From assembly GCA_934183255.1 (NCBI GenBank), contig CAKPSD010000003.1, forward strand, positions 18,789-82,788: a stretch of 64,000 bases of DNA, read 5' to 3'. A model generated the notes under the pieces. The model did not search any database. It saw only the letters and a program-made list of their open reading frames with translations, and was not told the origin of the DNA. Made by a program: the position numbers and the translations under genes. The DNA is from an uncultured Bacilli bacterium. Lineage in GTDB: Bacteria > Bacillota_I > Bacilli_A > RFN20 > DUOF01. Numbering within the stretch: position 1 is the stretch's first letter; every line of letters begins with the position of its first letter. This document shows positions 6,366 to 63,865 of the stretch, piece by piece.

Positions 6366-6371
6366 ATCATT

Positions 6372-24370: not shown

Positions 24371-24402
24371 CAATAAGTCCCTAATTAAAGGGACTTATTT
24401 GT
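24371..24402 (-). terminator. Hairpin after the giant ORF (possible terminator)
   Basis: A perfect 10-bp stem AATAAGTCCC/GGGACTTATT (24372-24381 / 24390-24399) with an 8-nt loop lies 10 nt after the TAG stop. The trailing U-tract is weak. Confidence 0.45.
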
Positions 24403-24409: not shown

Positions 24410-27400
24410 CTAAGCTGCTCTTACTTTCTTTCTAAGTTTTAGAATTAAGAATCCACCACCTACTGCAGCAATTCCTCCTAATACATAGAAGATCCATGTG
24501 AAGTTACCTCCACCTTTATTCTTATTATTATCTGGATTTACTGGATTATCTGGATTTACTGGATTATCATTAAATCCATTATTCACTATTCCAATAAGAA
24601 TATAACTCTCATCATCAAAGTTAATTAAGTAGTCTGTTATACCATATAATTCCTTATTAATAACACTCTCAACATTAGAATCTACATTAATTTGGAATGA
24701 TATAGCATTTAATTTAAATGTTTTACCATTAACAGCACCACTAGATAAAATTGAGAAGATAGTATGTTCTTTATCAGGAATAACACCCATAAAGTAAATC
24801 GCATCATTATCACTAATAGAATCTATATCATCAAATTCAAGATATGCTCTACTACTACTCAATTTTTGTAATATTACTCTATCAAATTTAATAGGAGATC
24901 CAGAAGTAACAGTAGTATCAGCTACATTATCTCTATCAATAACATTAAATGTATATTTATCTTCATCTGTTTCTAATTCTTTAGTATCTGGAGCAAGTAT
25001 AACAAATTCATAAACATACCTATTACCAGCTACATCTGTAATAACAAATCTATAATGTCCAAATCCTTCAACAGGTACTCCAGTATCACTATAACATTGC
25101 ATATCTACAAATAGTTTGTTATTCATATAACCTTGTACTCTCATACTTCCACTATCATCAATAAATGATATAGTGAATGAATCAACATCTTTATAAATAT
25201 CATCAATAGGTTTATCAAGAATATTATTATCCTTTATGATATTAACCATTGGAGCCATCTTATCAAATATAAATGTAGCAGTAGTAACTTCTCCAGATAC
25301 ATTTCCTACAGTATCAACTAATCTAAAGTATAGTTTTACTCTAGTTAATGGATCATTTAAGTTAGCTGTATATGCTAAGTTATAAGTATCACCTTCACAT
25401 ACACTCCAATTAGATTCATCCCTGTTATTATTTATAACAACTAAACATTCATAATGATATCTATTGGTGTTATCACTACCACCAGTTATTTTATAATATA
25501 ACTCATCACTATTTGTATAAATACTATCACTAGTTATATCCAAAGTATTTCTTCCATCATAACTTAATTCAATCTTGCTACCAGCTTCATTAGGATTTGT
25601 ATTATCTATTATACTAAAGTATATTTCTAGATATTGTATATTTCCACTTGCATCTGTTACTTTCAAATTAGCTTTAAATCTAGCATATTCTTGATTGCTT
25701 ACAGAATCAGTAGCTGAAATAGAATCAATTATGTATGCTAAGTTTGTATCATAATTATCTCTAACAAAAATATTAGTACGTATCCAACCAGCATCATTAG
25801 ATAAATATTTCATCATCTTTTCATGTTCATTCGATCCTGAATATATTGACCAGTTAACCTCATTATAATTGAATGATTTTTCAATACTACTAGTAGTGAT
25901 ATCATCATTATTCATAGTAAATGTAGGAGAAGTAGTATCTTCAACAAAGATAACATATTCTATTTCACTACTATTCTTACTATCATCATAACAAATCATA
26001 ATGATCTTATAATAACCTGTTCTAGTAAGTTTAATCTTATAATTTTCTTTGTCTTCACTAGATAACTCTATTTCACTAAAGTTAACACCATCATTTGAAT
26101 ACATTAAACTCTTTATAGTTACTTCATGATATTTATCATCTTCATGATCTTTTGAAGTTGGTTTATTTAATTTCAAATCACAAATGTCTTCTTCATTAAA
26201 GCAAACTGTAGGTCTATTTTCGTTGTCTCTAATATTAAGAACAAAGTATATAAATGCTGTATCTCTACTTATAATATATTTAACACCATTAATTTCAAAC
26301 ATGTTATTAGCAGTAATACTTGCAACTTTATTTCCATTACTATCTACAATCTTTTTATCAGTTATATCACTAACATCAATAGTATATTTTACATCACCTA
26401 TAGTAAAGTATTTTCCTTCACTAATAGCTATGATATTATCATCTATTATATCAGGAGAATGCTTATCACCAATATTTAATGTGATACCTATATTAGCATC
26501 ATCAGCTAATGCTTTATTACCAGTTGAATCGATTACTTCATAAATAATTCTATATGAACCAGGCAACATAAATGTAAAGCTATTTCCTTCATTTACAATA
26601 TATAGTCTATCGTTATAGTAGTACTTATTATTTTCAAATGTTATTTCTTCATATTCATTATTTATCTTAAATTTAATAATTCTTCTAACACCAATACATT
26701 CACCATCAGCAGTATTACAAGTAACAATATTGCCTTCACTATCAAATCCATAATTATCACTAACTGTAATTCCTGCATCAGTATATGTGTAGCCATTAAC
26801 ATTAGTTATATCATAATAATAAGCTTTTCCATATGCATAAGTTCCATTTACTCTAAACTCTGGTTTTGCTTCATCAACTACTTTTATAGTTAATGTAACA
26901 GTATTTGATTTATTTCCAGCAACATCGCTATAAGAAACATCAAAATTATAATCACCAATCTTATTAAATATAAAGTCAGTTTCACTAAATACCCATTCAC
27001 TATCATTTGCAGATACTTTATGATTGTTGAATGAAATTAATAATCTAGATTTTTCATCTATTGTTAAGTTACTATAAAATTTTCCATCTACTTGATTAAT
27101 AAAGTATCCTGATATTATTTCTTTTATTTTAGAACTTGAAAGAGATATGTTATTAATACTCTTATTTACAACAACTAATAATGTACAATTTGAAGTATTC
27201 TTAGAATCACATTCAATTTTCTTACTACTATAATAACTATTTGTTTTAACTTTTATTTCAGGACTTATAAAATCAAGTTTGATTTCTGATTCATTTGAAA
27301 CACCAGCTGAGTTATATGATGTTATAACTAATGAGCTAAGTTTATAATCAGAAGCTTTTAAAGCATCAGCATATATAGAACTTACTAAGTTACTTAATAA

Positions 27401-30400
27401 TCTCTTACCACTAAAGCTAGAATCTAATCTATATGATTTAGAACTATTACCATATTTAAATGTAAATTCTATTCTACTTATATTTGTTTCTAACATTTCA
27501 ATATATAAGCCATCAAATTTAGATTTACTAAAGTAATCATTTTCACTATAAACAACTTCATCACAACTAGTAGAAGTACAATTCTCTAATATTCTAAATC
27601 CACTATTAACTTGATCTATTACAACTTTTATAGAAGACTCATTTCCTGCTTTATCTTTAATCACAACGTTGTATTCACCATCAACATTAATAGTCATACA
27701 ATAACCTGTTCTTCCACCAGAACAACTAGCTACAGTTCTTTTTTGATTATTAACATATACATTTTCAGTATCAAATCCACTAACATATCCTCCATTAGCA
27801 TCATCGTTAAACACAAATCTTACACTCTTAGAGAAGTAATATCTTCCTTCTTCATCAATCATATATTCATATGTTCCATCAATACCTAAAGCACTTATAG
27901 TAGGTCTTTCATTATCAATATAAATATTAGATATTGTAGATATGTTTTCATTTCCATACATATCTATACCTTTAACAATAAGTCTATATGTTCCACTAAT
28001 TAAAGTATCTGTACTATAAATTACCATTGTATATTCTTTTTGACCTGATTTATTAATATCTTCTCTAACAATACAATTTGCAGTACATTTAGCAACTTCA
28101 TCAAAGTTATTTAAAGTAATACCTGAAGTACCACCACTTATAAGTTGTAAAATATATTTTACAGATCTTAAATTTTTATTACCAGTTACTTTAAATTCAA
28201 TATTATCTCTACTTAATCCATATAGATTATTAGAAACACTTAATTCAATTTCTGGTCTATTAGTATCAAATTCACCTAAAGCAAATACTTCTTCGCCTAA
28301 TACGTTATTTCCTTCGGATACATAATCATCAGTAACTTTAATTCTTAAGTCAGCCTTAATTATACCATCTGTAAACAAACTCAAGTATGTGCTTCCTCTC
28401 ATAGAATAAGTAATAACATTTCCTATTCTATTTTGAGTAAATCTATCTGTAATATCTGTTACATTATCCCATTCATTAGTATCAGAATTCTTAGTTACTG
28501 TATATATTGTAGTTTTTGGAGTTCCTACTACACCATTCATAGTAACAGTGAATGAAACTATACCATTATTATCAACATAATTAGGAGTATATTTCATATT
28601 ACCAATAGTAATACTTCTTCCCTCTACATACATAATCTTATATGAAATCTTGTGTTTATCATTCATATTCATATTGCCAACTTTATCTTTGATTCTTGTA
28701 TAGAAGTTAAAGTAACTATCTTCATCTAGCATTTCATTAGTAATTTCTTTGCTACAATAAGAAGCTGTTTCCATACTATCATCACTGATTTCGCAATACA
28801 TAACTTCATTATTATTTTCATCTAAGTAATATACAACAATAATATTATCATCTTTAACCTTGTTAGTGTAACTTAAGTGAACTCTTCCAAGTTCATCTTT
28901 AACTAATATAAAGTCTATAAGATCTCTAGAATTATTAGGCGCTACATTATCTACACTTATAGCAGTATTTGTAGTTACCTTATTACCTAATTTATCTGTA
29001 TATTCAACAACTAAATCATAAGCACCATCAAGAGCAACATCTGAACATACTACATCATAATAACTATCGCTACTTATAGAAGTTATTGTATTTGAACATC
29101 TCTTATTATTACCATCTTTCAAATAATAATTTAATGATTTAAACATATCTCCATATTCACTAAACTTAAAGGCAATCTTTAAACTAGTTCCATATGTATC
29201 ACTACCATTAATACCTTCATCTAATTTTTTATCATTGTATTTAAACATAGAATCAATTTTAACTTTACTTGAAGATACATTTTCAACAGTAAATGTCAAA
29301 CTATCATCACTTACTTTTCCAGATCCATCTTTAGCATATATAGTAATAACTTTTATTGCTTTATCATTTAAAGTTCTTAATGCTATACTTTGTAAGTTTC
29401 TACTATCAATACCTGTTAAATCAATAACATCACATTCATCATCATAACAGACATATAAGTATTTTTGTAAATTATCTTCATCAACAATAGCATTTTCTCC
29501 TAAATTAATAATTAGTTTGCCATTATACATGTATTGAGCATTATTAATTATAACTTGTTTATTTACTAAATTATAATTGCCATCTAATATATTACCTTCT
29601 ATAGTAAATTTACTTACATCCATTACTGGCTTATATGCATCAATATTCTTAGCTAAAATACTCTTATATGAAGCAGTTCCCCATTTATCTTCAATTTTAA
29701 ATACATAATATCCATTTTTAGAAACATTAGAAATATATTCATTTGATCCCTCAGATACTGTAAGCTTACTAGCTGAGTCCCATGCTAATTTAGAATAATC
29801 AGAAGCATTAACAAATGTTTCACTATAAACATAGAATATCTCTCTTCTACCAAGAGTAGTCTTTATATTAGAAATAGCACTATTTAATTTAATATTTAAA
29901 GGTTGATTAGTACTATAACTTATTGTCTCATCAGTTGTAACTTCATAATCGAATAAAGATGTACTATAAGAGCCTGTTATATTAATAATAGCTTTAATAG
30001 TATTACCAGCTTTATCCATAGCAATTATATTAATATAGTTATGAATAAGATTAATACTACTTCCACTTCTAAATGATTTACATCCACCATTATTTACTTC
30101 AACATTTTCACTTGACCATACGCATAACTTGCTAAGACCTGAATTGCCTTTATCCTTTGAATTAATAACAATAGAAGATACATCTGATGGAATAACATCA
30201 CTTACAACTCCATTTTCACTAGAATAATATAATTGTCTAGGTTTATTAGTATAATAACCATTGCCTGTTAAAGAATATTCTTCTTTAACAACACATTCTA
30301 AGCTATTTTTAGAACTACACTCTAATTTATAATTTTCTAAATTCTTACCATTAAAGTTATTTAATGAAACTATGATACTTGGTTTCTCATTATCATATGT

Positions 30401-48400: not shown

Positions 48401-51400
48401 ACTAGAATCATTACTATTTATAAGCATGTTTACAATTAATTTATTAATTATTTCAACTTTCATTTCATTAATAAATTCTTCAGGAATAGCAACGTTTTTA
48501 TCATTATATGCAACTGTTAATGTATAATTTATAGTTGTATTATAAAATTCATTAACTTTTTGTAATCCACTTATAGAAATATTAACTTTTTCACTATCAA
48601 ATAAATATGCATAAATAGTCTTAGTATATTCATATCCACTTCTAAATACTATTTTATGAGAATAAGTTTTAATATTATCTTTAGAAATTTCATTAGAGCA
48701 GCTTTCTTCATTCTTATTAAATGTACATTCTAACACATTTGTTGTTTCATCATATAAATCATGATTTACTTTTATTACATAAGAGCCATTAGAAGCATCC
48801 TTATCTATATAATAATAAGTAGTACCATTACTATTCTTAATCTGTGTTTTTTCTGCAGTAGAAGTAACATCCACTCCAACTTTACTAACATCACTTACTA
48901 TAACATTAAATTTTTCTTGTTTTGTGATTTGTCTTCCATATTTATCATAATATCCTAAATTTAAATCAACAGCATTATCTCCAATTTTTAATCCTTTTAC
49001 TTTAATTTGAGTATCACTATACTTTTCACAAGACACACTCAAAAGATCACAAACTACTTTACTATTATTTTGATAAGTATTTTCATTAAGATAATAAGCA
49101 TCAAATGATTTATTTGCTACTTTTAAAATAGCATTTCCATCATTTTCAGTTAACTTATATCCATAATTTTGATTTTCAAAAATATCTTCATAACTATTTG
49201 GTACTTCTATAATTCCTACTTTTCCATATTCATCACTAGGCATATTAGTAGCAATATTATTATTTATAAAGTTCTGATTTATTCTAATTTCTAGTTGATT
49301 ATTTGCATCCTTATTCAAATCATTTATTTTAATTTTAAGATAATCTGTACAAGTAGCAAATCCATCTTTTTTGTTTTTATCAAGAATTGAATCATTATCT
49401 TCATCTCGAGTACAACTGAAACTTACATTTGTAGTGTATCTTCCTACTACTTCATAGTTTGTTCCATTTGCATAATTTAATTTTTCTAATAAGTTATATG
49501 CATTTTTATTTCCAACATAAGTAGAATATACAACTTTAATAACCAAAATTAGATTATCTTCACTATAATAGTAAACATCACCATCATGAATTGAAAATTC
49601 TATATTATTTAAATATGTATGAAGAGTTGTGTTTTCAGTAGTTTCATTGCTACTTATTATTGATGTATTTACATTAGCAAATGTCATCGAATTTTTAACT
49701 TCTACTTCTGTTTCTTCTTTTACTTTAATACTACTTGTTTCAACAAAAGTTTTAGTAGTATCATCATATTTTCCATTAACTGTATTTAAATTAACACTAC
49801 CATAGTTAGCAAGCATATTTGCAGTATCTACAAGATATCTATTATTTATATCTTCAATAATTGCATCCGTACCTATATGACAATATGTAACATCACAACT
49901 AGCAGAATCATCAGAGAAGTATCCTAATGTCACAACATTAAATCTTCCAACATCATCGTTTGAAACTTTAATAGTATATTTAAGTACATTTACTAGAACA
50001 CTTATATTTTCTGATGGTTGGAATGTTACAGTAGTTTCTTCTGGAGTTGATATTTTTTTATCTTCCCCATTACCAAATTTATAAATAATTGTAGGGTATT
50101 TTGTATTTGCGCTTTCCTTATCATAGTGAATTCCATCAGAGAAAGAAACATAAAGTACAATTGACTCTCCTGTATAGAAAATTTTTCTATCAGGTAATAA
50201 TTGATTCTCATCATACCATATTGAAACTATACTAGTATTTTTATTAATAATATATAGAAGTTTATTTTCTATAGTTTCTTCTGGTTTTACAACTAGCTTA
50301 AAGTATTTCACTGAATCTTGAACTTCTTCAAGATAAATTTTATCAGAATAAGATGCTGCAGAAGTAGAAACAACATCAGATATATTAGGCTTATTACTAG
50401 CCAAATCACAAAATCCTGATTCAACCAAATAAATAAAAGCTTGTCCTTCATCTACAGAACATCCAGAAATAAAGAAAGTAACATTCTTTCCTTTACTATC
50501 TGATAATTCTTTTAAAGTTATTGTACAATTAGTAGTTGCACCTGGATTAGGTTTATCATCATCTAATTTAAAATAATTTGAAACTTTATCTTCATTGAAA
50601 GTCATATGCTCTTCATCATAGTAAACAACTATTTTTGCAGTATAACTTGCGTTTATTTTCAATCCATTAGGTATTGCTACAATTTCAGTAATTTTTAATG
50701 GTGTATTATCAACTACTATTTCAGTTCGATTATATTCAAACCCTCTATTTTGGTTATTAGCTTCATCTACTATTGTATTAGAATTTATATGTAATCTAAA
50801 ATCTCCATTTCCTGTACAATTGCTAATTATAACTGTTTGTGTTTTTGTTGATTTGTTTAAATCTCCTATCGTTATAGAAGAACAATTTAAACTTCCATTA
50901 AGAACAACAATTTCCACATTAGAGCTATCAGTTAATGCTGAATATAAATTGTCTTCTGTATATTTTAATGTGTATGTAATTGTATGTGTGCTATTTACAT
51001 AAGTATTGTTTAATTCGTTTGTTGTTATTATTGATTGTATACTACCTGTAGGCAACTTATTATCAACTACGATTTTAGCATCTATTTCCTGTTCATCTAT
51101 CTTATATTTATCAAATGCAATTTCAGTATTTTTATTATTAGCCTTATCTATTATTACATCAGCGTTTACTTGTAATGCTACAGTTCCATCTCCATTACAG
51201 TCACTAACTTGTACTGTTTGTGTTAAACCATTTAAAGCTCCTACCACTACAGTAGAGCAAGAGACAGTTCCACTTTTATTAAGTGTTATTTGATTTTTAT
51301 TTGTTAATGCTGAATATAAATTTTCCTCAGTATATTCTAATGTGTATGTAATTGTATGTGTACTATTTACATGTGTATTGTTTAATGGGTTCGTTGTTGA

Positions 51401-52738: not shown

Positions 52739-52914
52739 ACATACACTCTCCCCATTAAACTACATCTTAATAATAAAACAAAAAAAGTAAATGAACAATA
52801 AAACGAAGATATTTTGTCGCCTTTTGTTGAAAAACAAGCACTAAATTTATATATAATATAAATTAAAGTAAAAAAAACAAAATAATTTAAGTTTTTATTT
52901 GATATTTTATTGCA

Positions 52915-52944
52915 TTAAAAAACCCATTATTTCTAATGGGCTTT
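52915..52944 (-). terminator. Rho-independent terminator after the 158-aa gene, separating it from the giant gene
   Basis: On the minus strand, CCCATTA-gaaa-TAATGGG (52923-52940) is followed by UUUUUU (plus-strand A-run 52917-52922). Confidence 0.7.
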
Positions 52945-52946
52945 TA

Positions 52947-53423
52947 TTAATCATCATTAAACCAATCGTCAAACGACATTGAACTAAACTTTTTATCTAC
53001 TTTCTTTTTCTTATTAGGATTTTCAATGCCTAATTCATCCATAATATCCTTCAAAACTCTCTCTCTCAAATCTGTATCATTTGAAACAAGTTTTATTAAT
53101 TCTTGTTGAATATCTGGAATCATTTCAATAGAATTCATTAAAGTTTCAACTTTTCTACTATCTTTGCAAGAAACACTAGAAACTCTATTAACTTCTTGCA
53201 TTAAATCAAATCCCTTATTTAAAACTTCATTAGTATTAATAGTTGTCGTGGATAAATGCGCTAGCCACATAAAAATCTTTTTATTACAATCAAATAATAC
53301 ATCAATATTACCTTGATTTTTCATAAAGTTAGGTTTATCCAAAACATCTAGTATTTTAGGGTATTCTCCCTTAATTGCCATCACAATGTTTTTTACTTTT
53401 GCTTTTTCTCCACCAGTTAACAT
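52947..53423 (-). CDS. Hypothetical cytoplasmic helical protein (158 aa) with a Lys-rich stretch and an acidic aromatic C-terminus
   Basis: The ORF has a strong RBS (AGGAG, 7-nt spacer) 13 nt after the stop of the upstream gene. It has no signal peptide and no TM. It ends ...NPNKKKKVDKKFSSMSFDDWFNDD. No family was recognised. Confidence 0.7.
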   Translation of the reverse strand: MLTGGEKAKVKNIVMAIKGEYPKILDVLDKPNFMKNQGNIDVLFDCNKKIFMWLAHLSTTTINTNEVLNKGFDLMQEVNRVSSVSCKDSRKVETLMNSIEMIPDIQQELIKLVSNDTDLRERVLKDIMDELGIENPNKKKKVDKKFSSMSFDDWFNDD

Positions 53424-53436
53424 ATTAAACTCCTAA

Positions 53437-54486
53437 TTAAGCTGACTTTCTTGAAGTTAAATGATTTTTCTCACTTTTACGAGATAATACTAAATCAAAA
53501 CTTCTCTTTGTAAGTAAAGTAACATTGTTTAAATCTGCTGTATTATTAGCTTTAATAACACCAAATGGCCATTCGCCTTGTTTTTGGCAATCAATTACTC
53601 TATAAGCTTTATTTTTTCCAGTAACAAAGTAAACAACGCCTTGTAAACTTTGTCTAGCTATTTTTTCTGCTTGCTCATAGAATGGTTCCATATCTACAAT
53701 CACATTGCTAGAAGTAGCACCATAATCTTCTCTTAAAATATCTATTAATTCACTAGCAGAAATCATTCCTACTATCTCAATTGGTTTTCCTTTATATGTA
53801 CTTACAACAGGATAAATTTTCTTAGGAATTTCTTTTTCATCTTTAAATGGGATATTGATAATTACAGGAACAGTAACACTAGAAGGATTAGTTACTGCAG
53901 CAGCACTACTAATCTTACCTCTATACATATCATTACCATCAATTTGAATAAATTTACCATCACCATTAGGTAATCTAAGCCCCATCTTAGAATAATCATC
54001 TTTAACTCCAGATAATACTGTAACATTATCTAATGCTGTTTCAAAAGAGAAACTAGCTCCTTTTCTTTTTATAGGAACGCCTTCTCCTTGTTCTGCCTTT
54101 AATAAAGCTTCTTTCAAACTATTTGTTACTGAATAATTATAACGATAGAATAATTTGAAATATTCAAATCCTTTATTACTACTATTACTTTCATATACTT
54201 TCTTTAAATCATCATAGTACTTACTAGCTTCAGGTAAATTAATTAAGTTCTCTTCTCCCATATAGTAGAAACTATCTTTAATATTTTCACTATATCCCTT
54301 AACTAAAATTGAAGAGTACTCTGTCGAAATAAAATCAGTAGAAATACTAGTTGCAATAGCAGCCAAATTAGTATTTTCACCTAAATCACTTGTTTTTATA
54401 ATTTTAAGTTCACACAATTTATCTCTAATTACACTTAAATCTTTTAAAATTTCTTTGGTATAATACCTACCTTTATAATTTAACAT
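53437..54486 (-). CDS. Hypothetical cytoplasmic protein (~349 aa), family not recognised
   Basis: The tracked ORF runs 53437-54537 from a TTG with no RBS. The ATG at comp. 54484-54486 (MLNYKGRYY...) follows GAGGAG and is preferred. It has no signal peptide or TM and has a mixed alpha/beta-looking composition. Confidence 0.7.
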   Translation of the reverse strand: MLNYKGRYYTKEILKDLSVIRDKLCELKIIKTSDLGENTNLAAIATSISTDFISTEYSSILVKGYSENIKDSFYYMGEENLINLPEASKYYDDLKKVYESNSSNKGFEYFKLFYRYNYSVTNSLKEALLKAEQGEGVPIKRKGASFSFETALDNVTVLSGVKDDYSKMGLRLPNGDGKFIQIDGNDMYRGKISSAAAVTNPSSVTVPVIINIPFKDEKEIPKKIYPVVSTYKGKPIEIVGMISASELIDILREDYGATSSNVIVDMEPFYEQAEKIARQSLQGVVYFVTGKNKAYRVIDCQKQGEWPFGVIKANNTADLNNVTLLTKRSFDLVLSRKSEKNHLTSRKSA

Positions 54487-54566
54487 TTTATCTACACTCC
54501 TCGTTTGTATATTATCATAAATTAAAGAAATACTCAATTGTTTTTTTAATTCTAAGCTTATTTTTA

Positions 54567-57500
54567 TTATGCTGCTCTAACTCTTCTTCTAAGTCTTATA
54601 ATTTGATAGCCTAAGAACAATGTAGCAAGAGCACCAGTGATAATAAGAACAGTACCAAGCGCGCCATTCTTTTCACTCTTTTTATCCTCTTTATCTATTA
54701 TTGTAGGTTCATTAACATCTGTCTTAACAATTACATATGCATAATAAGATTCATTAAAATTCAAGAAATAATCCATACTCTTATATCCATCAATAAATTT
54801 CTCACCATTGCTTATAAGCGTAATCTTATTAGCTCCAGCAACATCTTTTCCACTCATGCTATACATAACAAATACATTTTCCGTATTAGGAACAAGACCT
54901 AAAACATACACGATATCTTTAGAAGTTATATTTAGGACGCTTAAATCAGTATTCACATTAATATAACCATTAGCGTCATATTCTGTATTAACCTTAACTA
55001 ATAATCTCTTATCAAATGAAACTGAAGTAGTAATGGAATCCTTATCTTTTATATCATTTACTACATTTACATATTTATTAGTATTTATAACAAAATCAAC
55101 AATTGTAGTATTACCATAACTATCTAATGCTTCAATCCTATATGTACCATTCTTACTAAGTTTGCAAGGTAAATCTTCTTTAGTTAAATCTAATAATTCA
55201 TTATTTAGCCATATCTTAACACTAGCTAAGCTATTATCGGTAACATTTACTTCAACTTCTGTTTCTACTATTTCATTATTATCTACTCCACTTATAATAG
55301 GATTAGAAGTATCTACAATTATTGTCTTACAACTAATATTGTCACTAATGTTTTGATAAGAATCAACCGCTCTAATACAAACTCTTACTTCAGAATTTAA
55401 ATTATTACCAAATTCTAATTTAGAATTTTCTGTATAACGTATCCAATCTCCATTTTGGACACTATATTCATGCCACCAGTTACTAGAGTTATCATCTCCA
55501 CCAACAATAGCTATAGCTATACTAGTAGAATTAGTTGATTCAGGTAATACAAGTTCACCAGCAACAGGCTTAGTAGTATCAACAAATCTAACATAAATAC
55601 TTATACGAGTTTCATTAAGTGATAAATCTTTAGCAATTAAAACAACTTCATAATCATAAATATTATTATCCTTTATTTCATAAGTTATATTAACATCAGA
55701 ATAATAATTATCTACAGCATAAACATTATATTTATCAATAATATCCCTTACAACATCAAAATTATAATCAAGATCTAACTCTATAACTGTATTTTCATTT
55801 ATTCCTTTTATTTCTGGTTTAGTATTATCAATAACCTTTACTTCATATTCAAATGTAGACATATGATTAGTAGAATCAGTAGCTGTAAATCTAATATAAT
55901 AATTTCCCACTTTTGTAAACTTAAATTTCAATCCATTAGCATCTTCACTAACCAAATGTGTTTCATTACTTTTTGCCTTAGTACCTATATTATTAGAAAC
56001 ATAAACTCCAGCAAATAACACATCAATAAACTTATCTTCTCCCTCATCATAACTAGAAGGTTTCTTTAATGTTTGAGTAGGAATAGTAACTTGTCCTAAA
56101 GCATTTCTATTACCAACAATAACTTCAAATGAATTAGTATCTCCATATGCACTTGTAATAACAGGAGCCTTATTATCACTAACAGTAATAGTTTGTTCAA
56201 TAGCAGCTTCATTATTTGAAGCATCATAAACAGTATAAGTAAATTTATATACTCCTGGTTTACTAAACTTATAAATATTATCGCTAACTTTAACAATATT
56301 TAAGCAATATTTTCCACTACAAACAGCTTTATCTAAAGAATAAATTTTATTTTTAACTAATGTTCCAGAAATATTTTCCATTGCGTAATTGTCAATAGCT
56401 TCAACTCCTAGTATTTCTACCTTTTCATTTAATTCAACATTATTTACATTAGTAATGATTCTTAATTCAGGAGCTAAAGTATCTACTACATTAACCTTAA
56501 ATATCTTCTCTTCTGCTTTATTAAGAGATATACTAGTATAATTAATCTTAATAGTATAATTTCCTATACTATCAAATAAATTACTAGAATAAAGATTCTC
56601 ACCACTATATACATCTACTTTAAGCTTAGAATCATTAACTAAATCATTATAATTCATACCATTAATATTTAAATTCAAAGCTCTTAATAAGTCACCTAAA
56701 TCAATATTATCTTTCCCAATTTCAACATTCAAAGCTTCATTCTTTATAGTATAACTACTATTACCTAATGTAATAATATTACCCTCGATATCATCTATAT
56801 AAATATTAGGTATCTTACTATCATAATTAATAATAGTTTCTGCTACTCTATTAGCTTTATCTGTGACTTTAATAGTAATCTTATCATATTCCTCTGCACT
56901 ACTATTAATAAGATCTAGAATGCTAACACCATATTCACATATACTTCTATTAACTAAGCATTTACCAATATTACTCATATAACTATAATTCAAATATGTT
57001 TTATTTGAACCATTAGAAACAATAATATCAATAACACTAAAGTTTTCTTCACTAACGCTTATATATAGTCCCTCTAATGATCCATATATATTTGCTACAA
57101 CAGCTTGGTAATAATAAGTATCATTTATTTTCTTATACACATTAATAACAGGGCTTACCATATCAGTAATAATCTTCACTTCTTTTTCATTATTAGAAAT
57201 ATCATAAACTTTTAAAATATAATTCCCTGTTTCTAAACGATAAAATAAAGTATTACCATTTATTTCTATATTATCTCTATTACAATTATAATCACTTGCA
57301 CTATCATTAAAATAACATGTAGATAATAAAGTATTATTTTCAAAATCATATAATTCAAAATAATTAATTTGCTTATTATCAGTCATTTTAACTTTTATTG
57401 AACTGCTAACATAGACTAAATCACCACTAATAAGTGTATAGTTAGAATTATAATTTCCAGAACTATTCTTTAATGAATAATAAACGCTAGGAGCTTCATC

Positions 57501-60500
57501 ATCAAAACGTGTAACTACTTCAACTAAATCAATAAGATTATTATCAACATAAACAAAGAAAGTAATCTTTTTATCTTCATTTATAGATATTGTATAAACA
57601 TTATTAGAAACACTATAAGATTCACTCTTACATATTGAAGATACACTAACACCACAAGATTCAATTGTATCTATATCATATGTTTGTGTAGATGTAATGT
57701 TATCATCTACTACATATATAAATCTAGTAACGCTCTTACTTCCTAAATTATTTATAACTACTTTTATATTCTTATTTTTAGCATTGAAGTATGCTTTAGC
57801 ACTTACACTACTAGTAATAGAACTATAATCATAATTTCTAATACTCTCATTTTTTGCCTCATCAACTAATTTTAAAACAAACATAGCAGATGTATCATTT
57901 CTATTAAATGTATATACATACTCACCATTATTACTAGTAAACTCTACTTTCTCATAACTACCATTTATATTAATATATAATTCTTCTACTAATTCACTAT
58001 ACATAATAAGCGAATAAGTATTATCACTATTTTTAATGGTATCAATAATAATTTCATCAAAACTAGGACTAATTGTATCCATATTAATATTCTTATCAAT
58101 CTTCTTAAGAATATAATTACCTATTTCATTTCTAACATATATCCATAAATAATATGAATCATCTACATTATTTTTACTAATAATTTGATTATTAATTGAA
58201 AGCTTATTAAATCCATAATAATTTAAAAAATTAGATATTGTTCCACTATAGTTTTCTTTTTCTTGTTCTAAATTAATATTTTTAGATACAAGTGCATATT
58301 GTATATATCCTTTTTCAATTAAATAATTAACATTGCTATTTTCAATATTTAATATTATTTTATTATATTTTTTACTTTCATCTATTAAGTTATTATTAGA
58401 ATCATATATATTAACTCTAATTTCTCCAACACTAGCAGAGTATCTAACATTAAATGCATATGTTTCACTAGCATTACCTGCTTCATCATATAAATAATAA
58501 GAAATAACTCCTGTAAAATTAATTGGTGAACTAATACTTAATTCTCTATTAACATAATATCCATCTTTAAGATAACTAGAAATATTATATGAATTACAAG
58601 AAGATTTAAAACAAACATACGCTTTTAAATTACTATTATTTCCATTAGCTATATCAAATAAACTATTTTGAACAAATTTCAATTTAATTTGAGTCTCATT
58701 TGAATAATTATAAATTTTCTTACCATCTTCAATTGTAATATATAAGTTATTAGAATTATTAGTGTATAAAGTTACAGATTCATTATTAATAATAGGATTA
58801 ATACTATCGTAATATATTTTAATAATTTCTAATTTATCATTACCATATACATCAATAGCGTATACATATAAACTATTTTCTCCTTCAATTAAAGATAAAT
58901 CGCTTAAAGAATAACTATTTGAACTACTAACATCTAAATTAACAAAGCCTGAAGACAATTCTTTATTAACATAAGAACAATTATTTAAGCAATATGCTAC
59001 TCTTTCTATATCTTCATAAGAATTACTATGAGTAACACTAAAACTTATATTTCTATTATTAGTAAATTTATTTTGATCAAAACTAGAAGTGACAGCTAAT
59101 GTTGGAATTCTAATATATAATTTATTACTTGAATAAGTAGCGCTATTGCCAGCACTATCTTTAGCGTATACTTTAAACTTATAAGCTACACCATTTTCAA
59201 ACTTACTTGAATCTATTTGTACTTTATCAATAACGCATAAATTAGAACCAAGATTACAGCTTTCATATTTAACACGTTGAACACTAACATTAGTATCATA
59301 CACTACAAATTCATAATATATTTCATCAATATTTATAAAACTTAACACATCGCTTATTTCTACTTGATATGTAAAGTTAGTAATATACTCTGAACTATTG
59401 CCATTAGTAATGTTTCCTTCACCATCTCTCATAGCAATAGCAGGCGCTTCTTTGTCTACAAAGATATCTTCAACATATGCATATGAAACATTATTAGCTG
59501 AATCAATAGCTCTAATATATAAATTATATTTACCAGTACTATTTGGACTAGTAATAATTAATTGCTTACTAGATAATATAGAATTATCAGTTATGTTTCT
59601 ACTAATTGTAGTATCACTACTATAAAAATAATTGTTAAAGTTTTCTTCACTGTAGAAAACACTTATATTGTTTGATCTATCAACACTATATTTTTTAGTA
59701 GTAAAGAAATATGAATATCTAGCATGCTTACTACCTGTAGTTTCCTTTTCATCAAACATAACTTTAAATCTATGTTCATTCTTGTAAACATCATTTTCTA
59801 AATTACTTTCCCCATTTTCCTTATATACATTTATAGAAATTTCTTCTCTATCTATACTTTCAATAACATATGTTAACTTTTTAAAATTACCAATTATATC
59901 TTCTATATAGAATGTATATTCACCATTTTCTGAAATAGCATATGCACTAATAGGACTACCAAAATCGCTACCATCATAATAAGTAACATTATTTTTTCCT
60001 CTTTCACAATTTACATTTGAAACATTTTTTCCAACAGCTACACACTTAATTGTACTAATATCATTGAATTCTATTAATGTGCTAATAACATCATTAGTAT
60101 ATGCATTAGAAGCATCAACTTGCACTCCATCAACCATAAAAGCAACGTTAAACTCATCTATATCATTATCAAACTTCAAATAATCTCCACAAATAACTTT
60201 ATCATTTTGTTTAACACATAACATATAACTGCCATTTAGATTAACATTTCCCTCAATTAATATCGAAGATGAATTCTTTTTAATAACATTTGTAAAGTTA
60301 TTAACACTATTTCCTTCTTTTATCCATTTATAATAAAAGTCTGTTCCATCTTCAAACATAAATGCATTAACTTCAACAGAATGATTCTTTCTAACTTCTT
60401 TTCCACTCTTATAATCAAAAGCCATATTAACTTCTAAACTTTTATTAACACAAGTTATGTTAAGTGCATAATCTCTTATACACAAATAAATATTATATGT

Positions 60501-62687
60501 GCCATTTTCTAAATCACTAGGTAATGAATAAGCAAATTTTGTATTTTCTTCTATGCTTTTCCACTCACTACATTCACTACTTGTATTAGATAAGCAATAT
60601 GATTCTAAATCCTTATCATTACTAGATAACTCTACATCAATTTTATTACCACTAACTAAATAGTTTTTATCATTAGAAGAAATACCTTTATACAATGGAT
60701 AATTAAAGTTCATATTAATATTAGGATTACTATCATCTAACGTATAACTTTGTACATAATCTTGAGCAAATTCATTCTCAAATACATCTTTGGCAAACCC
60801 TTTTTCTATAACTAAAGAGAAAGAATTAAGTCCCGCTAATACATCACTTGTAATATTAACTATTAATTTATTATTCTCTAAAGAAATATTTTCCTTACTA
60901 ACACTTATAATTTGAGTTCCACTCTTAATATATACTTTTGATAAATCATAAGTTAATTCGCTTATATCTTCTATTAATAATTCAAAAGTAATTTTTGTAG
61001 AATCACCACTATAAATTATATTATCAATTTCTTTACCATTTTCTATAACTATATTTTCACTAGAAAATATAGGATTTTTATTATCAGAATATAATTCAAG
61101 ATCTATATTGTAATTAACAATTTTATCTAATCCATTTTCTCCAGTTATAACAAAACCATCAAAATTAATATTAAGTTTTCCATTATATGATTCTAAAACA
61201 GTAATATCTATAACTAAATTAGAAGCCATAAATGAAATTACTGGAGAAGCACTAACATTACCAAATGTAACCTTTATTTTATTAATATCAGCACTAGAAA
61301 CACTAATACCATCTTTAACAGGAATAACAATGTTAATATTATCTCCTTTTTTAACATATTTACTAGATGTCAAAATACCATCTCTAGTAACCTTATATGT
61401 TATTGATTCAAAGTTTAAATCAGGATCTTTAGAATTTATATGAACGCCTTTATCTTCTAGAACATCTCCATTATTATCAACTACTGTAAATTCATATGTT
61501 GCATTTTTTATCGCATCTAAAATATTACCATTTAAATCATAAATATATGAATAGTCATAATTAACTTTAGCACTACTTACATAACCATTCTTTTCTATAG
61601 ATCTAACACGACAAGAATAAATTATTGCATTACTAGAACTACTACTATATGTACAAGTAGCATAATCATCAATTGTAATTACAGGCAAATCATTTTTTAT
61701 AGCATTTATATCCTCACTAAAAACCATCTTTATTAGTAAAGGATTAGTGATTGAATAAATTCCTTTTACTACCTCTAATCTTGATATTACTGGTTTTAAT
61801 CCATCAACTTTAAAATTCTTATTTATAGCAATATTACTTACATCAATATTTCCCCTAATTTTATTATTATATCTATCTTTTATTTGATTATTATTAGAAA
61901 TACTAGTAACAGAAAAATTTCCCTCATCTCCAGAAGCTATAGTATAAGAACATTCAATATAAGATCTAATAGAATAAAGATTGTTATTACAAGTAACTGA
62001 TCTAGAAGACTCTCCTATTTTAAATTTAAGAACACTAACTTTATTAAATATTTCTTCATTAAAATTAATTGTAAATTTAATAGTATCTCCAATTCTTAAA
62101 GTTCTAGAAGAACTATCATTTACTATAGCTAAATCAACACTAGTAACGCTAGGAGCTACCACATCCAAACTTAAATCTCCATTTTTATTAGTTTTACCGC
62201 CACCAAGTGGAATAAAACCAATTGCTTTTTTCACATTATCTGCTTCTATATATAAAACAACAACACCAGTTTTTGTTCCATCATAAGTACTATTTGGTTT
62301 AAAAACATTAGTTATACTTGATTTTGGTATAGTATATTCTCTAAGTATTTGTGCACAAGTACCACCATTATATTTATCACAAATTTGTTTTTTAGTAAGT
62401 CCATTAGAATAAGAAGTAGTACCACTATTAATATCTATACTATTATCTATACTACTAGATGTAAATCCATATTTTATATAATTAAAATTATTTTCATCAT
62501 ATCCTATATATACTTTTAAATCGCCATCATCTAATTTGTAATCATTAGGTATAATAATAACTGGGCCATCATCTTTTGCTTCTACTTTAATTGAATTGCA
62601 TACAAACCCTGTACAAATTAGCATAAATAAAAACAACACATACTTAAATATGTCGTTAAAATTCATCTTATTTTTTTGTTGAACCAT
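54567..62687 (-). CDS. Large (2,706 aa) secreted, C-terminally membrane-anchored multi-Ig-like repeat protein, paralogous in architecture to the giant ORF
   Basis: RBS AAGGAG. Signal peptide MVQQKNKMNFNDIFKYVLFLFMLICTGFVCNSIKVEA. Module starts of the xDxxxP type: LDVVAPS, VDGLKPV, VDKEAPA, VDTLAPE, IDNTKPE, VDTTKPV, VDTSNPI. DxxGN-type motifs: AKDSAGNSAT, LYDEAGNASE, ALDSYGNTTI. The C-terminus is the TM helix GALGTVLIITGALATLFLGYQII plus RLRRRVRAA. Confidence 0.93.
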   Translation of the reverse strand: MVQQKNKMNFNDIFKYVLFLFMLICTGFVCNSIKVEAKDDGPVIIIPNDYKLDDGDLKVYIGYDENNFNYIKYGFTSSSIDNSIDINSGTTSYSNGLTKKQICDKYNGGTCAQILREYTIPKSSITNVFKPNSTYDGTKTGVVVLYIEADNVKKAIGFIPLGGGKTNKNGDLSLDVVAPSVTSVDLAIVNDSSSRTLRIGDTIKFTINFNEEIFNKVSVLKFKIGESSRSVTCNNNLYSIRSYIECSYTIASGDEGNFSVTSISNNNQIKDRYNNKIRGNIDVSNIAINKNFKVDGLKPVISRLEVVKGIYSITNPLLIKMVFSEDINAIKNDLPVITIDDYATCTYSSSSSNAIIYSCRVRSIEKNGYVSSAKVNYDYSYIYDLNGNILDAIKNATYEFTVVDNNGDVLEDKGVHINSKDPDLNFESITYKVTRDGILTSSKYVKKGDNINIVIPVKDGISVSSADINKIKVTFGNVSASPVISFMASNLVIDITVLESYNGKLNINFDGFVITGENGLDKIVNYNIDLELYSDNKNPIFSSENIVIENGKEIDNIIYSGDSTKITFELLIEDISELTYDLSKVYIKSGTQIISVSKENISLENNKLIVNITSDVLAGLNSFSLVIEKGFAKDVFENEFAQDYVQSYTLDDSNPNINMNFNYPLYKGISSNDKNYLVSGNKIDVELSSNDKDLESYCLSNTSSECSEWKSIEENTKFAYSLPSDLENGTYNIYLCIRDYALNITCVNKSLEVNMAFDYKSGKEVRKNHSVEVNAFMFEDGTDFYYKWIKEGNSVNNFTNVIKKNSSSILIEGNVNLNGSYMLCVKQNDKVICGDYLKFDNDIDEFNVAFMVDGVQVDASNAYTNDVISTLIEFNDISTIKCVAVGKNVSNVNCERGKNNVTYYDGSDFGSPISAYAISENGEYTFYIEDIIGNFKKLTYVIESIDREEISINVYKENGESNLENDVYKNEHRFKVMFDEKETTGSKHARYSYFFTTKKYSVDRSNNISVFYSEENFNNYFYSSDTTISRNITDNSILSSKQLIITSPNSTGKYNLYIRAIDSANNVSYAYVEDIFVDKEAPAIAMRDGEGNITNGNSSEYITNFTYQVEISDVLSFINIDEIYYEFVVYDTNVSVQRVKYESCNLGSNLCVIDKVQIDSSKFENGVAYKFKVYAKDSAGNSATYSSNKLYIRIPTLAVTSSFDQNKFTNNRNISFSVTHSNSYEDIERVAYCLNNCSYVNKELSSGFVNLDVSSSNSYSLSDLSLIEGENSLYVYAIDVYGNDKLEIIKIYYDSINPIINNESVTLYTNNSNNLYITIEDGKKIYNYSNETQIKLKFVQNSLFDIANGNNSNLKAYVCFKSSCNSYNISSYLKDGYYVNRELSISSPINFTGVISYYLYDEAGNASETYAFNVRYSASVGEIRVNIYDSNNNLIDESKKYNKIILNIENSNVNYLIEKGYIQYALVSKNINLEQEKENYSGTISNFLNYYGFNKLSINNQIISKNNVDDSYYLWIYVRNEIGNYILKKIDKNINMDTISPSFDEIIIDTIKNSDNTYSLIMYSELVEELYININGSYEKVEFTSNNGEYVYTFNRNDTSAMFVLKLVDEAKNESIRNYDYSSITSSVSAKAYFNAKNKNIKVVINNLGSKSVTRFIYVVDDNITSTQTYDIDTIESCGVSVSSICKSESYSVSNNVYTISINEDKKITFFVYVDNNLIDLVEVVTRFDDEAPSVYYSLKNSSGNYNSNYTLISGDLVYVSSSIKVKMTDNKQINYFELYDFENNTLLSTCYFNDSASDYNCNRDNIEINGNTLFYRLETGNYILKVYDISNNEKEVKIITDMVSPVINVYKKINDTYYYQAVVANIYGSLEGLYISVSEENFSVIDIIVSNGSNKTYLNYSYMSNIGKCLVNRSICEYGVSILDLINSSAEEYDKITIKVTDKANRVAETIINYDSKIPNIYIDDIEGNIITLGNSSYTIKNEALNVEIGKDNIDLGDLLRALNLNINGMNYNDLVNDSKLKVDVYSGENLYSSNLFDSIGNYTIKINYTSISLNKAEEKIFKVNVVDTLAPELRIITNVNNVELNEKVEILGVEAIDNYAMENISGTLVKNKIYSLDKAVCSGKYCLNIVKVSDNIYKFSKPGVYKFTYTVYDASNNEAAIEQTITVSDNKAPVITSAYGDTNSFEVIVGNRNALGQVTIPTQTLKKPSSYDEGEDKFIDVLFAGVYVSNNIGTKAKSNETHLVSEDANGLKFKFTKVGNYYIRFTATDSTNHMSTFEYEVKVIDNTKPEIKGINENTVIELDLDYNFDVVRDIIDKYNVYAVDNYYSDVNITYEIKDNNIYDYEVVLIAKDLSLNETRISIYVRFVDTTKPVAGELVLPESTNSTSIAIAIVGGDDNSSNWWHEYSVQNGDWIRYTENSKLEFGNNLNSEVRVCIRAVDSYQNISDNISCKTIIVDTSNPIISGVDNNEIVETEVEVNVTDNSLASVKIWLNNELLDLTKEDLPCKLSKNGTYRIEALDSYGNTTIVDFVINTNKYVNVVNDIKDKDSITTSVSFDKRLLVKVNTEYDANGYINVNTDLSVLNITSKDIVYVLGLVPNTENVFVMYSMSGKDVAGANKITLISNGEKFIDGYKSMDYFLNFNESYYAYVIVKTDVNEPTIIDKEDKKSEKNGALGTVLIITGALATLFLGYQIIRLRRRVRAA
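54570..54662 (-). other. C-terminal TM anchor plus basic tail of the 2,706-aa protein
   Basis: ALGTVLIITGALATLFLGYQII followed by RLRRRVRAA-stop. The tail matches the giant protein's LRKKVRAA. Confidence 0.8.
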
Positions 62688-62726: not shown

Positions 62727-62755
62727 ATAATATAATATTTACATGACAATTTCAA
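62727..62755 (-). promoter_or_regulatory. Candidate sigma-A promoter of the 2,706-aa gene operon
   Basis: The minus strand reads TTGAAA (62750-62755) - 17 nt - TATTAT (62727-62732), about 40 nt upstream of the ATG. Confidence 0.4.
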
Positions 62756-62787: not shown

Positions 62788-62812
62788 TTAAAAAGCCATT
62801 ATAAATGGCTAT
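62788..62812 (-). terminator. Rho-independent terminator after tsaD
   Basis: On the minus strand, AGCCATT-tat-AATGGCT (62794-62810) is followed by UUUUU (plus-strand A-run 62790-62794). Confidence 0.65.
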
Positions 62813-62853: not shown

Positions 62854-63858
62854 TTATAAGTTTAAACTAGGATCTACTCCCATATCTAAGCTACTTACTT
62901 CTTCATTACTATAATAAGCTGCCATTGCAAGCATCGCTGCATTATCAGTGCAACACCACATTGGAGGTATAACAACATCTATATTTTTATATTTACTAGT
63001 TACTCTATTTTTAATAGTTTCTCTTAATTCTTTGTTTGCGCTTACTCCTCCAGCTACTAACACTTGATTAACGTTATACTCATCTAGTGCTAACATAACC
63101 TTATCAGTTAAAATCTCTATTACCTTTTTTTGGAAAGAACAAGCAATATCTTCATTTTTAAAAGTTTCATTTTTCATTTTCATACCATTAACTAAATTAA
63201 GCACCGCTGTTTTAAGACCACTAAAAGAAAAGGCATACTTTTCATTAATTTTAGGATAAGGAAGTTCATACTTATTTTCTCCTATACTAGCTAACTTATC
63301 AATCACTGGGCCTCCTGGATAACCAAGATTTAAAACTCTACTAACCTTATCATAAACTTCACCAACTGCATCATCTCTAGTCTCTCCTAAACACTTAAAA
63401 TCATATTCTTTGTTCATCAAATATAATTGAGTATGTCCACCACTAACAACAAGAGTTAATACAGGAAATTTAAAATCACTTACATACTTATTAGCATATA
63501 TATGACCTGCCATATGATTAACTCCTAAAAGAGGAATATTATATGCAATAGAAATAGCTTTTGCAGCTTGTAACCCTACATGTAATGCCCCAATTAATCC
63601 AGGTCCTTTAGTAACAGCAATTAAAGTAATATCCTTATAATCTAGTTTAGCATCTTCCATAGCCTTACTAATACATAAAGTTATATTTTCTACATGTAAC
63701 CTAGAAGCAACTTCAGGCATTACTCCTCCAAACTTCTTATGAGTTTCAATTTGAGTTGACACTACATTTGCAAGTAATTCTTTACCATTTCTAAGTATAG
63801 CAACACTAGTCTCATCGCAACTTGTTTCTATCGCTAATATAACACTTTTATCCATCAT
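62854..63858 (-). CDS. tsaD: tRNA N6-adenosine threonylcarbamoyltransferase
   Basis: Motifs: ILAIETSCDETSVAI, GVNHMAGHI, VSGGHTQL, LVAGGVSANKELR. I set the start at the ATG at comp. 63856-63858, after GAGGTG; the tracked ORF begins 6 nt earlier at GTG. Confidence 0.93.
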   Translation of the reverse strand: MMDKSVILAIETSCDETSVAILRNGKELLANVVSTQIETHKKFGGVMPEVASRLHVENITLCISKAMEDAKLDYKDITLIAVTKGPGLIGALHVGLQAAKAISIAYNIPLLGVNHMAGHIYANKYVSDFKFPVLTLVVSGGHTQLYLMNKEYDFKCLGETRDDAVGEVYDKVSRVLNLGYPGGPVIDKLASIGENKYELPYPKINEKYAFSFSGLKTAVLNLVNGMKMKNETFKNEDIACSFQKKVIEILTDKVMLALDEYNVNQVLVAGGVSANKELRETIKNRVTSKYKNIDVVIPPMWCCTDNAAMLAMAAYYSNEEVSSLDMGVDPSLNL

Positions 63859-63865
63859 CTTCACC

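Follow-up and report, generated by a model that had tools for sequence, protein, structure and literature searches.

A Probable Sortase-Independent Locus for Anchored Giant Surface Proteins in Uncultured Gut Bacilli: A Conserved Operon and an Accessory Paralogue

Introduction

What do two giant open reading frames (ORFs) and the two small orphan genes between them encode, and do the four genes belong together? The question is raised by a 64,000-nucleotide (nt) stretch of DNA from an uncultured Bacilli bacterium (assembly GCA_934183255.1, contig CAKPSD010000003.1, positions 18,789 to 82,788), which as a whole is called the window in the following. On its minus strand, the ORF list gives the order tsaD, a gene for a giant protein of 2,706 amino acids (aa; mid), genes for a 349-aa protein (s2) and a 158-aa protein (s1), a terminator, the gene for a second giant of 9,442 aa (big), a hairpin, and topB. 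Both giants fall outside all curated families, and 36 kb for two such proteins is a large investment in a probably small genome. They represent sequence “dark matter” of a human-gut lineage known only from metagenome-assembled genomes (MAGs) of the Hadza and of other cohorts. An original prediction made from the DNA sequence regarded the four genes as a self-contained, undescribed system for the production of membrane-tethered megadalton fibres. The analysis presented here indicates that the locus is probably a sortase-independent (no sortase is encoded in the 64-kb window), Ebh-like anchored fibre locus, consisting of a conserved operon and an accessory paralogue. Giant adhesins of this kind are already known; the novelty lies in this specific anchor module with its tail, in domains that have diverged to an extreme degree, and in a conserved pair of orphan genes.

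Results

Both Giants Are Predicted to Be Tethered to the Membrane by Their C-Termini

All four genes are encoded on the minus strand, mid at 54567-62687, s2 at 53437-54486, s1 at 52947-53423, and big at 24410-52738. The gene order, the ORF sizes, the flanks formed by topB and tsaD, and the joint length of the two giant ORFs (36,450 nt, i.e., 57% of the window) are as originally predicted (ORF list, Pfam). In mid as well as in big, exactly two hydrophobic segments are found, a signal at the N-terminus and a helix at the C-terminus, the latter comprising residues 2675-2693 of mid (nt 54609-54665, minus strand) and 9415-9433 of big (nt 24440-24496, minus strand). In both giants, the helix is followed by a short basic tail, which is RLRRRVRAA in mid (nt 54570-54608, minus strand) and KLRKKVRAA in big (nt 24413-24439, minus strand), and both proteins therefore end in L[RK][RK][RK]VRAA; the complete contexts are EKNGALGT-helix-RLRRRVRAA and NKGGGNFTW-helix-KLRKKVRAA, respectively. 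According to the positive-inside rule, a C-terminal helix followed by a positive tail would leave the bulk of each giant outside the cell, tethered by this single helix. Judged from these sequence features, both giants are predicted to be surface-exposed and C-terminally membrane-tethered without LPXTG.

A membrane-proximal anchor module of about 200 aa is colinear and end-aligned in big, in mid, in all orthologues, and in giants of remote lineages, and it is the best-conserved part of these proteins. The C-termini of the remote giants are homologous to the final 200-470 residues of both mid and big, with E-values from 1e-6 to 1e-35. Neither LPXTG nor a related pentapeptide precedes the helix in either giant, and Pfam Gram_pos_anchor yields E=0.53. 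When compared with TIGR01167 (LPXTG_anchor), the tail of big reaches 15.7 bits, the cutoff being 15.9, and the match covers model positions 9-33, i.e., the hydrophobic and basic part. When the C-terminal 46-51 residues of four members of the family were searched against NCBIfam, no model reached its cutoff, the best match besides TIGR01167 being PFE_CTERM (13.5 bits versus a cutoff of 24). The tail thus looks like an LPXTG sorting signal minus the LPXTG and could be either a relic of such a signal or a simple stop-transfer anchor.

Sorting signals of Gram-positive and other bacteria have dedicated enzymes, LPXTG being recognized by sortase and PEP-CTERM by exosortase, and the C-terminal helix with its VRAA tail might represent a sorting signal of a new type. 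Its cleavage or recognition would then require a dedicated enzyme, encoded elsewhere, and the giants would finally be attached by something other than a simple TM anchor. Such a role would agree with the arrangement at the very end of both proteins, where basic residues cluster behind a hydrophobic segment even though the paralogues are only 25% identical, and with the near-threshold score on the LPXTG_anchor model. However, a conserved motif is missing before the helix, the cutoff of no NCBIfam sorting-domain model is reached, the tail reads KVKAA or SVKVA in the remote lineages, and no candidate for a processing enzyme is encoded in the window. Also, the tail is seen only on this family of giants: a scan of GTDB representatives with the anchor-module alignment, which was pattern-based and of limited sensitivity, identified three loci only, all belonging to this family and all provided with s2 and s1. 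A new sorting signal is therefore considered very unlikely. When the C-terminal 500 aa of mid were used in a word-indexed search for homologues, no matches were obtained. A metagenome scan with the tail-encoding DNA pattern YTTARRARRARRGTWAGRGCNGCNTAR was discarded, as it returned two chance matches without an ORF from a collection which evidently does not contain this clade.

The External Part Is Largely Predicted to Consist of Divergent Ig-Like Domains

No curated Pfam family passes its cutoff in mid or big. For mid, only sub-threshold matches to Big_13 and Bact_surface_Ig-like are obtained, and big has no Pfam match at E<=0.01; when big was searched in pieces of about 945 aa, one Big_13 match appeared (26.2 bits versus a cutoff of 27). 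An iterated hidden Markov model (HMM), seeded with a recurring D-x-x-x-P-x-[IVL] motif that is spaced at about 110 aa, converged on a domain of about 115 aa, of which 19 copies are present in mid (about 80% of its length). In big, 32 copies are detected at a domain E-value <=0.01 and 41, covering about 40% of its length, at E<=1, and on locally shuffled and reversed control sequences the model gave 0 matches at E<=0.01. Forty of these domains from the window, when aligned, have a mean column identity of 15%. The resulting profile matches the bacterial immunoglobulin-like (Ig-like) domains of Salmonella SiiE (2yn3, E=2.4e-10), and also streptococcal R28, Bap (1.7e-3), the Hpi S-layer protein, GspB, and SraP, while PDB searches with each giant as a single sequence gave nothing. 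One domain, modelled by AlphaFold from an alignment of paralogous domains, folds into a beta-sandwich with moderate confidence (predicted local distance difference test, pLDDT, 72.5), and in Foldseek it comes closest to PKD, cadherin, and FnIII domains, with no match below E=0.01.

Internal repeats were judged by windowed BLASTP and by repeat finding at the DNA level, as whole-protein self-BLASTP culls off-diagonal high-scoring segment pairs. The only DNA-level repeats of the locus are three copies of about 370 nt, 80-88% identical (50926-51767, minus strand), close to the N-terminus of big, and they encode three recently duplicated Ig-like domains of about 123 aa (big residues ~240-712). Besides these, a few weak pairs with 27-39% identity are detected by windowed BLASTP between residues 4100 and 5900 of big, and mid has no pairwise-detectable repeats. 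The designation of the giants as repeat proteins in the original prediction is thus justified at the level of profiles, whereas repeats detectable in pairwise comparison are few in big and lacking in mid. The unclassified ~5.7 kaa of big, among them residues 687-1865, 2322-3118, and 3251-4131, are practically non-repetitive, and a search for a second domain family among them yielded only 4 weak pairs. FIVAR, GA-module, and DUF1542 repeats gave no Pfam match even at E<=1 on pieces of about 945 aa, and neither serine-rich repeat regions nor low-complexity tandem repeats occur in the giants. On these grounds, the external part of both giants appears to be largely a string of divergent bacterial Ig-like domains.

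The Unit of mid, s2, and s1 Is Conserved and big Is Accessory

In every contig that is long enough, the order tsaD, giant (2,611-3,067 aa), s2 (345-352 aa), and s1 (158-159 aa) is kept. Each contig with s2 also has s1, 12-16 nt downstream, and wherever sequence upstream of s2 exists, it encodes a giant whose C-terminus carries the anchor module described above. Neither an s2-s1 pair without a giant nor an anchor-module giant without s2-s1 nearby was encountered among ~14 distinct lineages. Co-occurrence of the small-gene pair with VRAA-type giants, on which the original prediction was to be judged, is thus confirmed as far as mid is concerned, in all contigs with enough sequence and including three remote lineages.

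In remote lineages, PTA is 50% and s2 26-33% identical to the window's proteins. In lineage L034, a giant C-terminus ending in RRKVKAA is followed by genes for rubrerythrin, s2, an s1 fragment, a 344-aa protein, a 1,499-aa membrane protein, and by pta. In L036, the giant ends in KARKSVKVA, and s2, 26% identical, is situated 115 nt after the giant's stop codon and is followed by s1. Contigs of L035 and L037 contain rubrerythrin, s2, and s1 and end too soon to show more.

In the window, mid, s2, and s1 lie on one strand and no terminator is found until s1 ends, where an intrinsic terminator (52913-52940, minus strand) with a 7-bp GC-containing stem (CCCATTAgaaaTAATGGG) followed by T6 closes the unit. 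Its sequence is the same in 10 same-species assemblies and it is kept in the sister lineage L026. At the other end, a terminator-like hairpin (62794-62810, minus strand; AGCCATTTATAATGGCT then TTTTAATTGT) closes the tsaD transcript, and a promoter-like site TTGAAA-17-TATTAT is located upstream of mid (62727-62755, minus strand). This site is recognized by consensus match alone and constitutes weak evidence; the number of such sites in the region equals the shuffle expectation. A further hairpin (AAGTCCCT-ttaatt-AGGGACTT; 24375-24396, minus strand), read from the sequence and without a clear T run, lies 14 nt past the stop codon of big. The placements originally given for promoter, terminator, and hairpin agree with the sequence, the promoter being a weak consensus match. 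The locus therefore seems to consist of a terminated three-gene unit, mid-s2-s1, and a separately transcribed big. For s2, the mechanical ORF reaches back to a TTG at 54537; as homologues all begin with MLNYKG, the ATG at 54486 is taken as its start, resulting in 349 aa. The s1 gene starts 13 nt downstream of s2. Signs of phase variation were not found, as the intergenic regions of the 10 same-species assemblies are identical and without tract-length differences, and inverton-like pairs of inverted repeats were not found around promoters.

The slot after s1 is variable. It is empty in lineages L001, L011, and L028, in which topB follows directly, and also in L009, in which the next gene encodes the M29 peptidase and topB is absent. 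L031 has a gene for an unrelated 940-aa secreted protein in this position, and L013 a different Ig-like ORF with a signal peptide, even though its s2 is 96% identical to that of the window. In the window's species, the slot contains a gene for 9,441-9,442 aa, recovered without interruption from at least 6 independent assemblies; the sister lineage L026 has an orthologue of 9,385 aa. In L025, which belongs to the same species, an IS110 transposase gene takes the place of the start of big. Among the 10 main-clade lineages sampled, 5 (L001, L009, L011, L028, and L031) thus lack big, which appears, from these gene neighbourhoods, to occur only in the window's lineage and its closest sister. A self-contained system of four genes, as originally proposed, is not compatible with this distribution, big being absent from 5/10 main-clade lineages, replaced in L013, and split off by IS110 in L025. 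For big, the co-occurrence check is negative, since this giant is missing in most close relatives, an outcome which the original prediction itself had named as speaking against it.

Some peculiarities of the slot and of its surroundings may be added. The IS110-family transposase of L025 (6292-7323; DEDD_Tnp_IS110 and Transposase_20) marks the slot as an insertion target. In L013, the slot ORF and a paralogous ORF for 765 aa (223-2520 and 12470-13852) are present, the latter upstream of the mid orthologue and with the same signal peptide as the slot ORF, lacking an anchor; these ORFs suggest recombination or duplication among surface-protein genes. In L009 (GCA_944363575.1, 11540-11617), topB is missing between s1 and the M29 peptidase gene and has been relocated or lost; other relatives have topB. 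The exact sequence of the window's big is absent from a collection of 15 billion proteins, and near-identical products of 9,441-9,442 aa are encoded on several contigs, so that some allelic variation of big must exist within the species.

The Giants Diverge Fast and Their Small Neighbours Slowly

Evolutionary rates were obtained by comparing genes of the window with those of the sister lineage L026, for big from its N-terminal third. The ratio of nonsynonymous to synonymous substitution rates (dN/dS) is 0.06 for tsaD (93% aa identity), 0.055 for s2 (96%), 0.16 for s1 (92%), 0.21 for mid (79%), and 0.49 for big (59%). Within the clade as a whole, identity is 30-42% for mid orthologues, 78-88% for s2 proteins, and 80-90% for TopB and PepM29. 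From dN/dS values below 1 together with these rates it follows that the giants are real genes under selection and that their ectodomains diversify fast. The small proteins seem to be under constraint at the level of housekeeping proteins.

These data also bear on the idea that the giant ORFs might have arisen by misassembly, be pseudogenes in decay, or represent recently acquired mobile cargo. Variability of the big slot, with an IS110 transposase in it in L025, would fit this idea, as would the lack of any curated domain match above family cutoff in both giants and of any match at all at E<=0.01 in big. An ORF of 9,441-9,442 aa is, however, present in at least 6 independent assemblies and its 9,385-aa orthologue in L026; the dN/dS values of 0.21-0.49 are below 1, and signal peptide, domains, and anchor are arranged coherently within the ORFs. 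Mobile cargo is contradicted by a GC content (fraction of guanine and cytosine) like that of neighbouring genes (0.23-0.28 in the block and 0.26-0.35 elsewhere in the window), as well as by the lack of an integrase gene, a tRNA gene, and flanking repeats in the window. An origin of the giants as artefacts, pseudogenes, or mobile cargo is hardly credible, and the pseudogene or artefact reading was rejected in view of the intact big in independent assemblies and of dN/dS below 1.

Pfam scans of all window ORFs of at least 100 aa identified no genes for integrases, transposases, sortases, or secretion systems, no tRNA is encoded in the window, and no repeats flanking the block were found in it. 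In all these respects, and also in assigning a resident composition to the block, the original prediction was right. The core locus is resident in the chromosome. A prophage or defence island was considered as well and rejected, because PHROG and PADLOC matches and an integrase are lacking.

The Small Proteins s1 and s2 Are Narrowly Distributed Orphans

Neither s1 nor s2 has a signal peptide or a transmembrane (TM) or other hydrophobic segment, and both are predicted to be cytoplasmic. No credible match was obtained for them with profiles of Pfam, NCBIfam, PHROGs, PADLOC, and the PDB. A model of s2 (pLDDT 73; predicted template modelling score 0.48) has its helices bundled in the N-terminal part and a C-terminal domain rich in beta-structure, and Foldseek gave no meaningful match to it in the PDB and BFVD. 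The best matches of all these searches had a root-mean-square deviation of ~20 Å or were sub-threshold, coiled-coil-like noise. In a set of 5.8 billion proteins, s2 forms 34 clusters, all at least 62% identical, and a HMMER profile of s2 finds 13 clusters in all among 1.84 billion representative proteins; s1 is as narrowly distributed. Public sources name the homologues of both only as “hypothetical protein,” and the carriers are gut MAGs designated as “uncultured Bacilli bacterium.” Besides the genome of the window, GCA_045128835.1, GCA_944363575.1, and GCA_025563055.1 are MAGs in which the locus is present. The s1 protein has an invariant N-terminal GGEK-K motif, and its C-terminus (52947-53000), which reads VLKDIMDELGIE...SFDDWFNDD, is strikingly conserved, the corresponding sequence in a remote lineage being SIDDLFADLED. 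As a mere observation, this acidic-aromatic C-terminus is charge-complementary to the basic [KR]3V[KR]AA tails of the giants.

Discussion

A Probable Fibre Locus With a Conserved Operon and an Accessory Giant

In the explanation that we regard as probable, the operon composed of promoter, mid, s2, s1, and terminator would encode a Sec-exported protein of ~300 kDa, in which ~19 divergent Ig-like domains would be followed by the membrane-proximal module of ~200 aa, a stop-transfer helix, and a brief basic stretch in the cytoplasm that closes with V(R/K)AA. Its product would be a surface fibre or adhesin that is tethered to the membrane and anchored without sortase. Transcribed on its own from the variable slot between s1 and topB, big would give rise to a paralogue of ~1 MDa that shares this anchor module. 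The products presumably form extended surface fibres or adhesins; at full extension, these would reach roughly 100 nm in the case of mid and several hundred nm in that of big, as estimated from ~19 and ~80 domain-lengths of ~4 nm. The fast divergence of the ectodomains as well as gain and loss of big may reflect pressure by the host, by phages, or by the immune system.

Among known systems, Ebh and Embp are closest in architecture. Ebh has a C-terminal hydrophobic anchor and a positively charged cytoplasmic end. As in Ebh and Embp, a single polypeptide of ~1 MDa is encoded by a gene of ~30 kb, and a signal peptide and a C-terminal membrane anchor are present in the giants of the window too; this likeness is one of architecture only. 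Ebh is composed of alpha-helical FIVAR/GA and DUF1542 repeats, whereas the giants are predicted to be arrays of beta-sandwich, Ig-like domains that hardly repeat in sequence. A conserved adjacent pair of cytoplasmic orphan genes is not known to accompany Ebh. The membrane-anchored, fibre-like Ebh has a mass of 1.1 MDa and is encoded by 33 kb (PMC3868527).

With regard to their domains, the giants resemble SiiE, Bap, and LapA, which carry tens of tandem bacterial Ig-like domains of ~100 aa, and the domain profile from the window matches SiiE and Bap. In their proteomes, no protein exceeds adhesins of this type in size (PMC6272769, PMC4647330). SiiE and LapA are exported by type I secretion, and the genes for the ATP-binding cassette, membrane fusion, and outer membrane proteins lie next to theirs (ABC, MFP, OMP; PMC6272769). 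In contrast to SiiE and LapA, the giants have an N-terminal Sec signal and a C-terminal TM anchor, and no components of a type I secretion system are encoded among the ORFs of the 64-kb window. Also, their domains (mean column identity 15%) differ among themselves much more strongly than those of SiiE, Bap, and LapA. With LPXTG-type sortase substrates the giants share the N-terminal signal, the tandem Ig-like stalk, and the C-terminal hydrophobic segment followed by a basic tail, but they lack the pentapeptide, the window lacks a sortase gene, and V(R/K)AA is conserved at the end of the tail. Serine-rich repeat adhesins differ as well, because the giants have no serine-rich repeats, s1 and s2 match no Asp family of Pfam or NCBIfam, and neither secA2 nor secY2 is present in the window. 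From proteins with PEP-CTERM-, GlyGly-CTERM-, or PGF-CTERM-type sorting domains the giants are distinguished in that they match no curated model above cutoff.

An organisational parallel, by description only, is provided by Mycoplasma mobile, in which the genes of huge surface proteins are clustered as gli123-gli349-gli521-gli42 and are co-translated with a protein of ~42 kDa of unclear location (PMC7052211). In both cases, huge membrane-anchored surface proteins are encoded in a low-GC, Bacilli-derived lineage, and s2 has a similar size of ~40 kDa. However, no sequence relationship to the Gli proteins was detected, although no search aimed at them was made, Gli349 is anchored N-terminally, and motility depends on an F1-ATPase-like internal motor, to which nothing in the window is comparable. 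In general, surface-attachment proteins constitute the second main class of huge bacterial proteins after non-ribosomal peptide and polyketide synthases (PMC11573180).

Do s1 and s2 Act on the Giants?

It is quite possible that s2 and s1 engage the conserved cytoplasmic tail or anchor, or that they escort the enormous precursor to the Sec machinery; acting from the cytoplasmic side, they may also control turnover of the giants. Degrons of the ClpX type are located at the C-terminus, for example -LAA or RRKKAI, and we presume that the basic VRAA tails of the giants look like degrons of this type. A more far-reaching proposal is that the anchor module, the helix with its [KR]3-V-[KR]-A-A-COOH tail, and s1/s2 together constitute an undescribed, sortase-independent module for the handling or anchoring of megadalton fibres, specific for a clade of uncultured low-GC gut Bacilli. 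Such a module seems rather unlikely. If it existed, the acidic-aromatic C-terminus of s1 and/or s2 would bind the basic tail and thereby position, stabilise, or quality-control the fibre, masking and unmasking of a degron at the tail being one concrete possibility.

Alternatively, and possibly, if with some doubt, s1 and s2 could be lineage-specific cytoplasmic proteins of the housekeeping type, unrelated to the giants and adjacent to them owing to a conserved regional gene order. In line with this alternative, s2 evolves like TsaD (dN/dS 0.055 versus 0.06). Conversely, no counterexample exists in ~14 distinct lineages, including L036, where 115 nt separate the giant's stop codon from an s2 of 26% identity; s2 and s1 occur only alongside this family of giants (13 clusters among 1.84 billion representatives), and in the window mid, s2, and s1 are on the same strand with no terminator before the end of s1.

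Several observations weigh against a fibre locus with functionally coupled small proteins. No family, fold, or motif ties s1 and s2 to secretion or anchoring, and, in line with a bystander role, no similarity to secretion, chaperone, or anchoring families is detectable. A rubrerythrin gene is inserted between giant and s2 in the remote lineages L034 (1945-2472), L035 (64-591), and L037 (46-585), and in L011 (8827-9804) two unrelated genes, encoding a 137-aa ORF and a Cys_rich_CPCC protein, are inserted in this position. Strict co-transcription of giant, s2, and s1 is therefore not universal. In L034, the wider region is syntenic beyond the trio as well (the orphan membrane protein, pta, mgtC, spoU, and the sigma factor), and the adjacency could therefore be due to inherited gene order instead of functional coupling. 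With respect to the giants themselves, the models of the domain and of s2 are of moderate confidence (pLDDT 72-73) with no Foldseek match reaching E<0.01, and ~60% of big and ~20% of mid, which are not matched by any domain model, could hide other activities. Of the undescribed fibre system postulated originally, the anchored giants have thus been retained, whereas nothing shows that s1 and s2 act on them, and housekeeping genes are syntenic too.

Under the explanation favoured here, i.e., an anchored fibre locus with a conserved operon and an accessory paralogue, the conserved anchor module and its candidate partner pair offer a testable handle on the sortase-free attachment of megadalton fibres in Bacilli. 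Fast-evolving ectodomains and a slot gaining or losing a 28-kb gene make the locus a likely determinant of strain-level interactions with host or phage. If s1 and s2 are bystanders, what remains is a pair of giants that join the well-known class of giant Ig-like adhesins as new and unusually divergent members.

Neighbouring Genes of the Window

The locus is flanked by tsaD (62854-63864, minus strand) and by the topoisomerase gene topB (22211-24298, minus strand), both identified by Pfam. The rest of the window belongs to the core genome and comprises rpoB, the genes for ribosomal proteins L7/L12, L10, L1, and L11, nusG, and genes for a sigma factor and a SpoU methylase. Further core genes are mgtC, pta, and those for an [FeFe] hydrogenase, an RsgI-like anti-sigma factor, and the M29 peptidase.

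A gene at 17490-20981 (minus strand) encodes an orphan protein of 1,163 aa with 4-5 N-terminal TM segments and without Pfam, PHROG, or PADLOC match. It is 48-49% identical among relatives in which PTA and PepM29 are 77-90% identical, adjoins pta also in the remote L034 (5340-9839; 1,499 aa), and represents a second fast-evolving envelope protein of the same neighbourhood. At gathering threshold, Rfam yields a single family for the window, the ribosomal protein L10 leader (RF00557, 72 bits), located upstream of rplJ at 6259-6374 (minus strand). In some Firmicutes, RsgI systems sense extracellular signals, and the same 64 kb that encode the giants also contain genes for a sigma-70-family factor (8753-9331, minus strand) and for the RsgI-like anti-sigma protein (15132-16364, plus strand).

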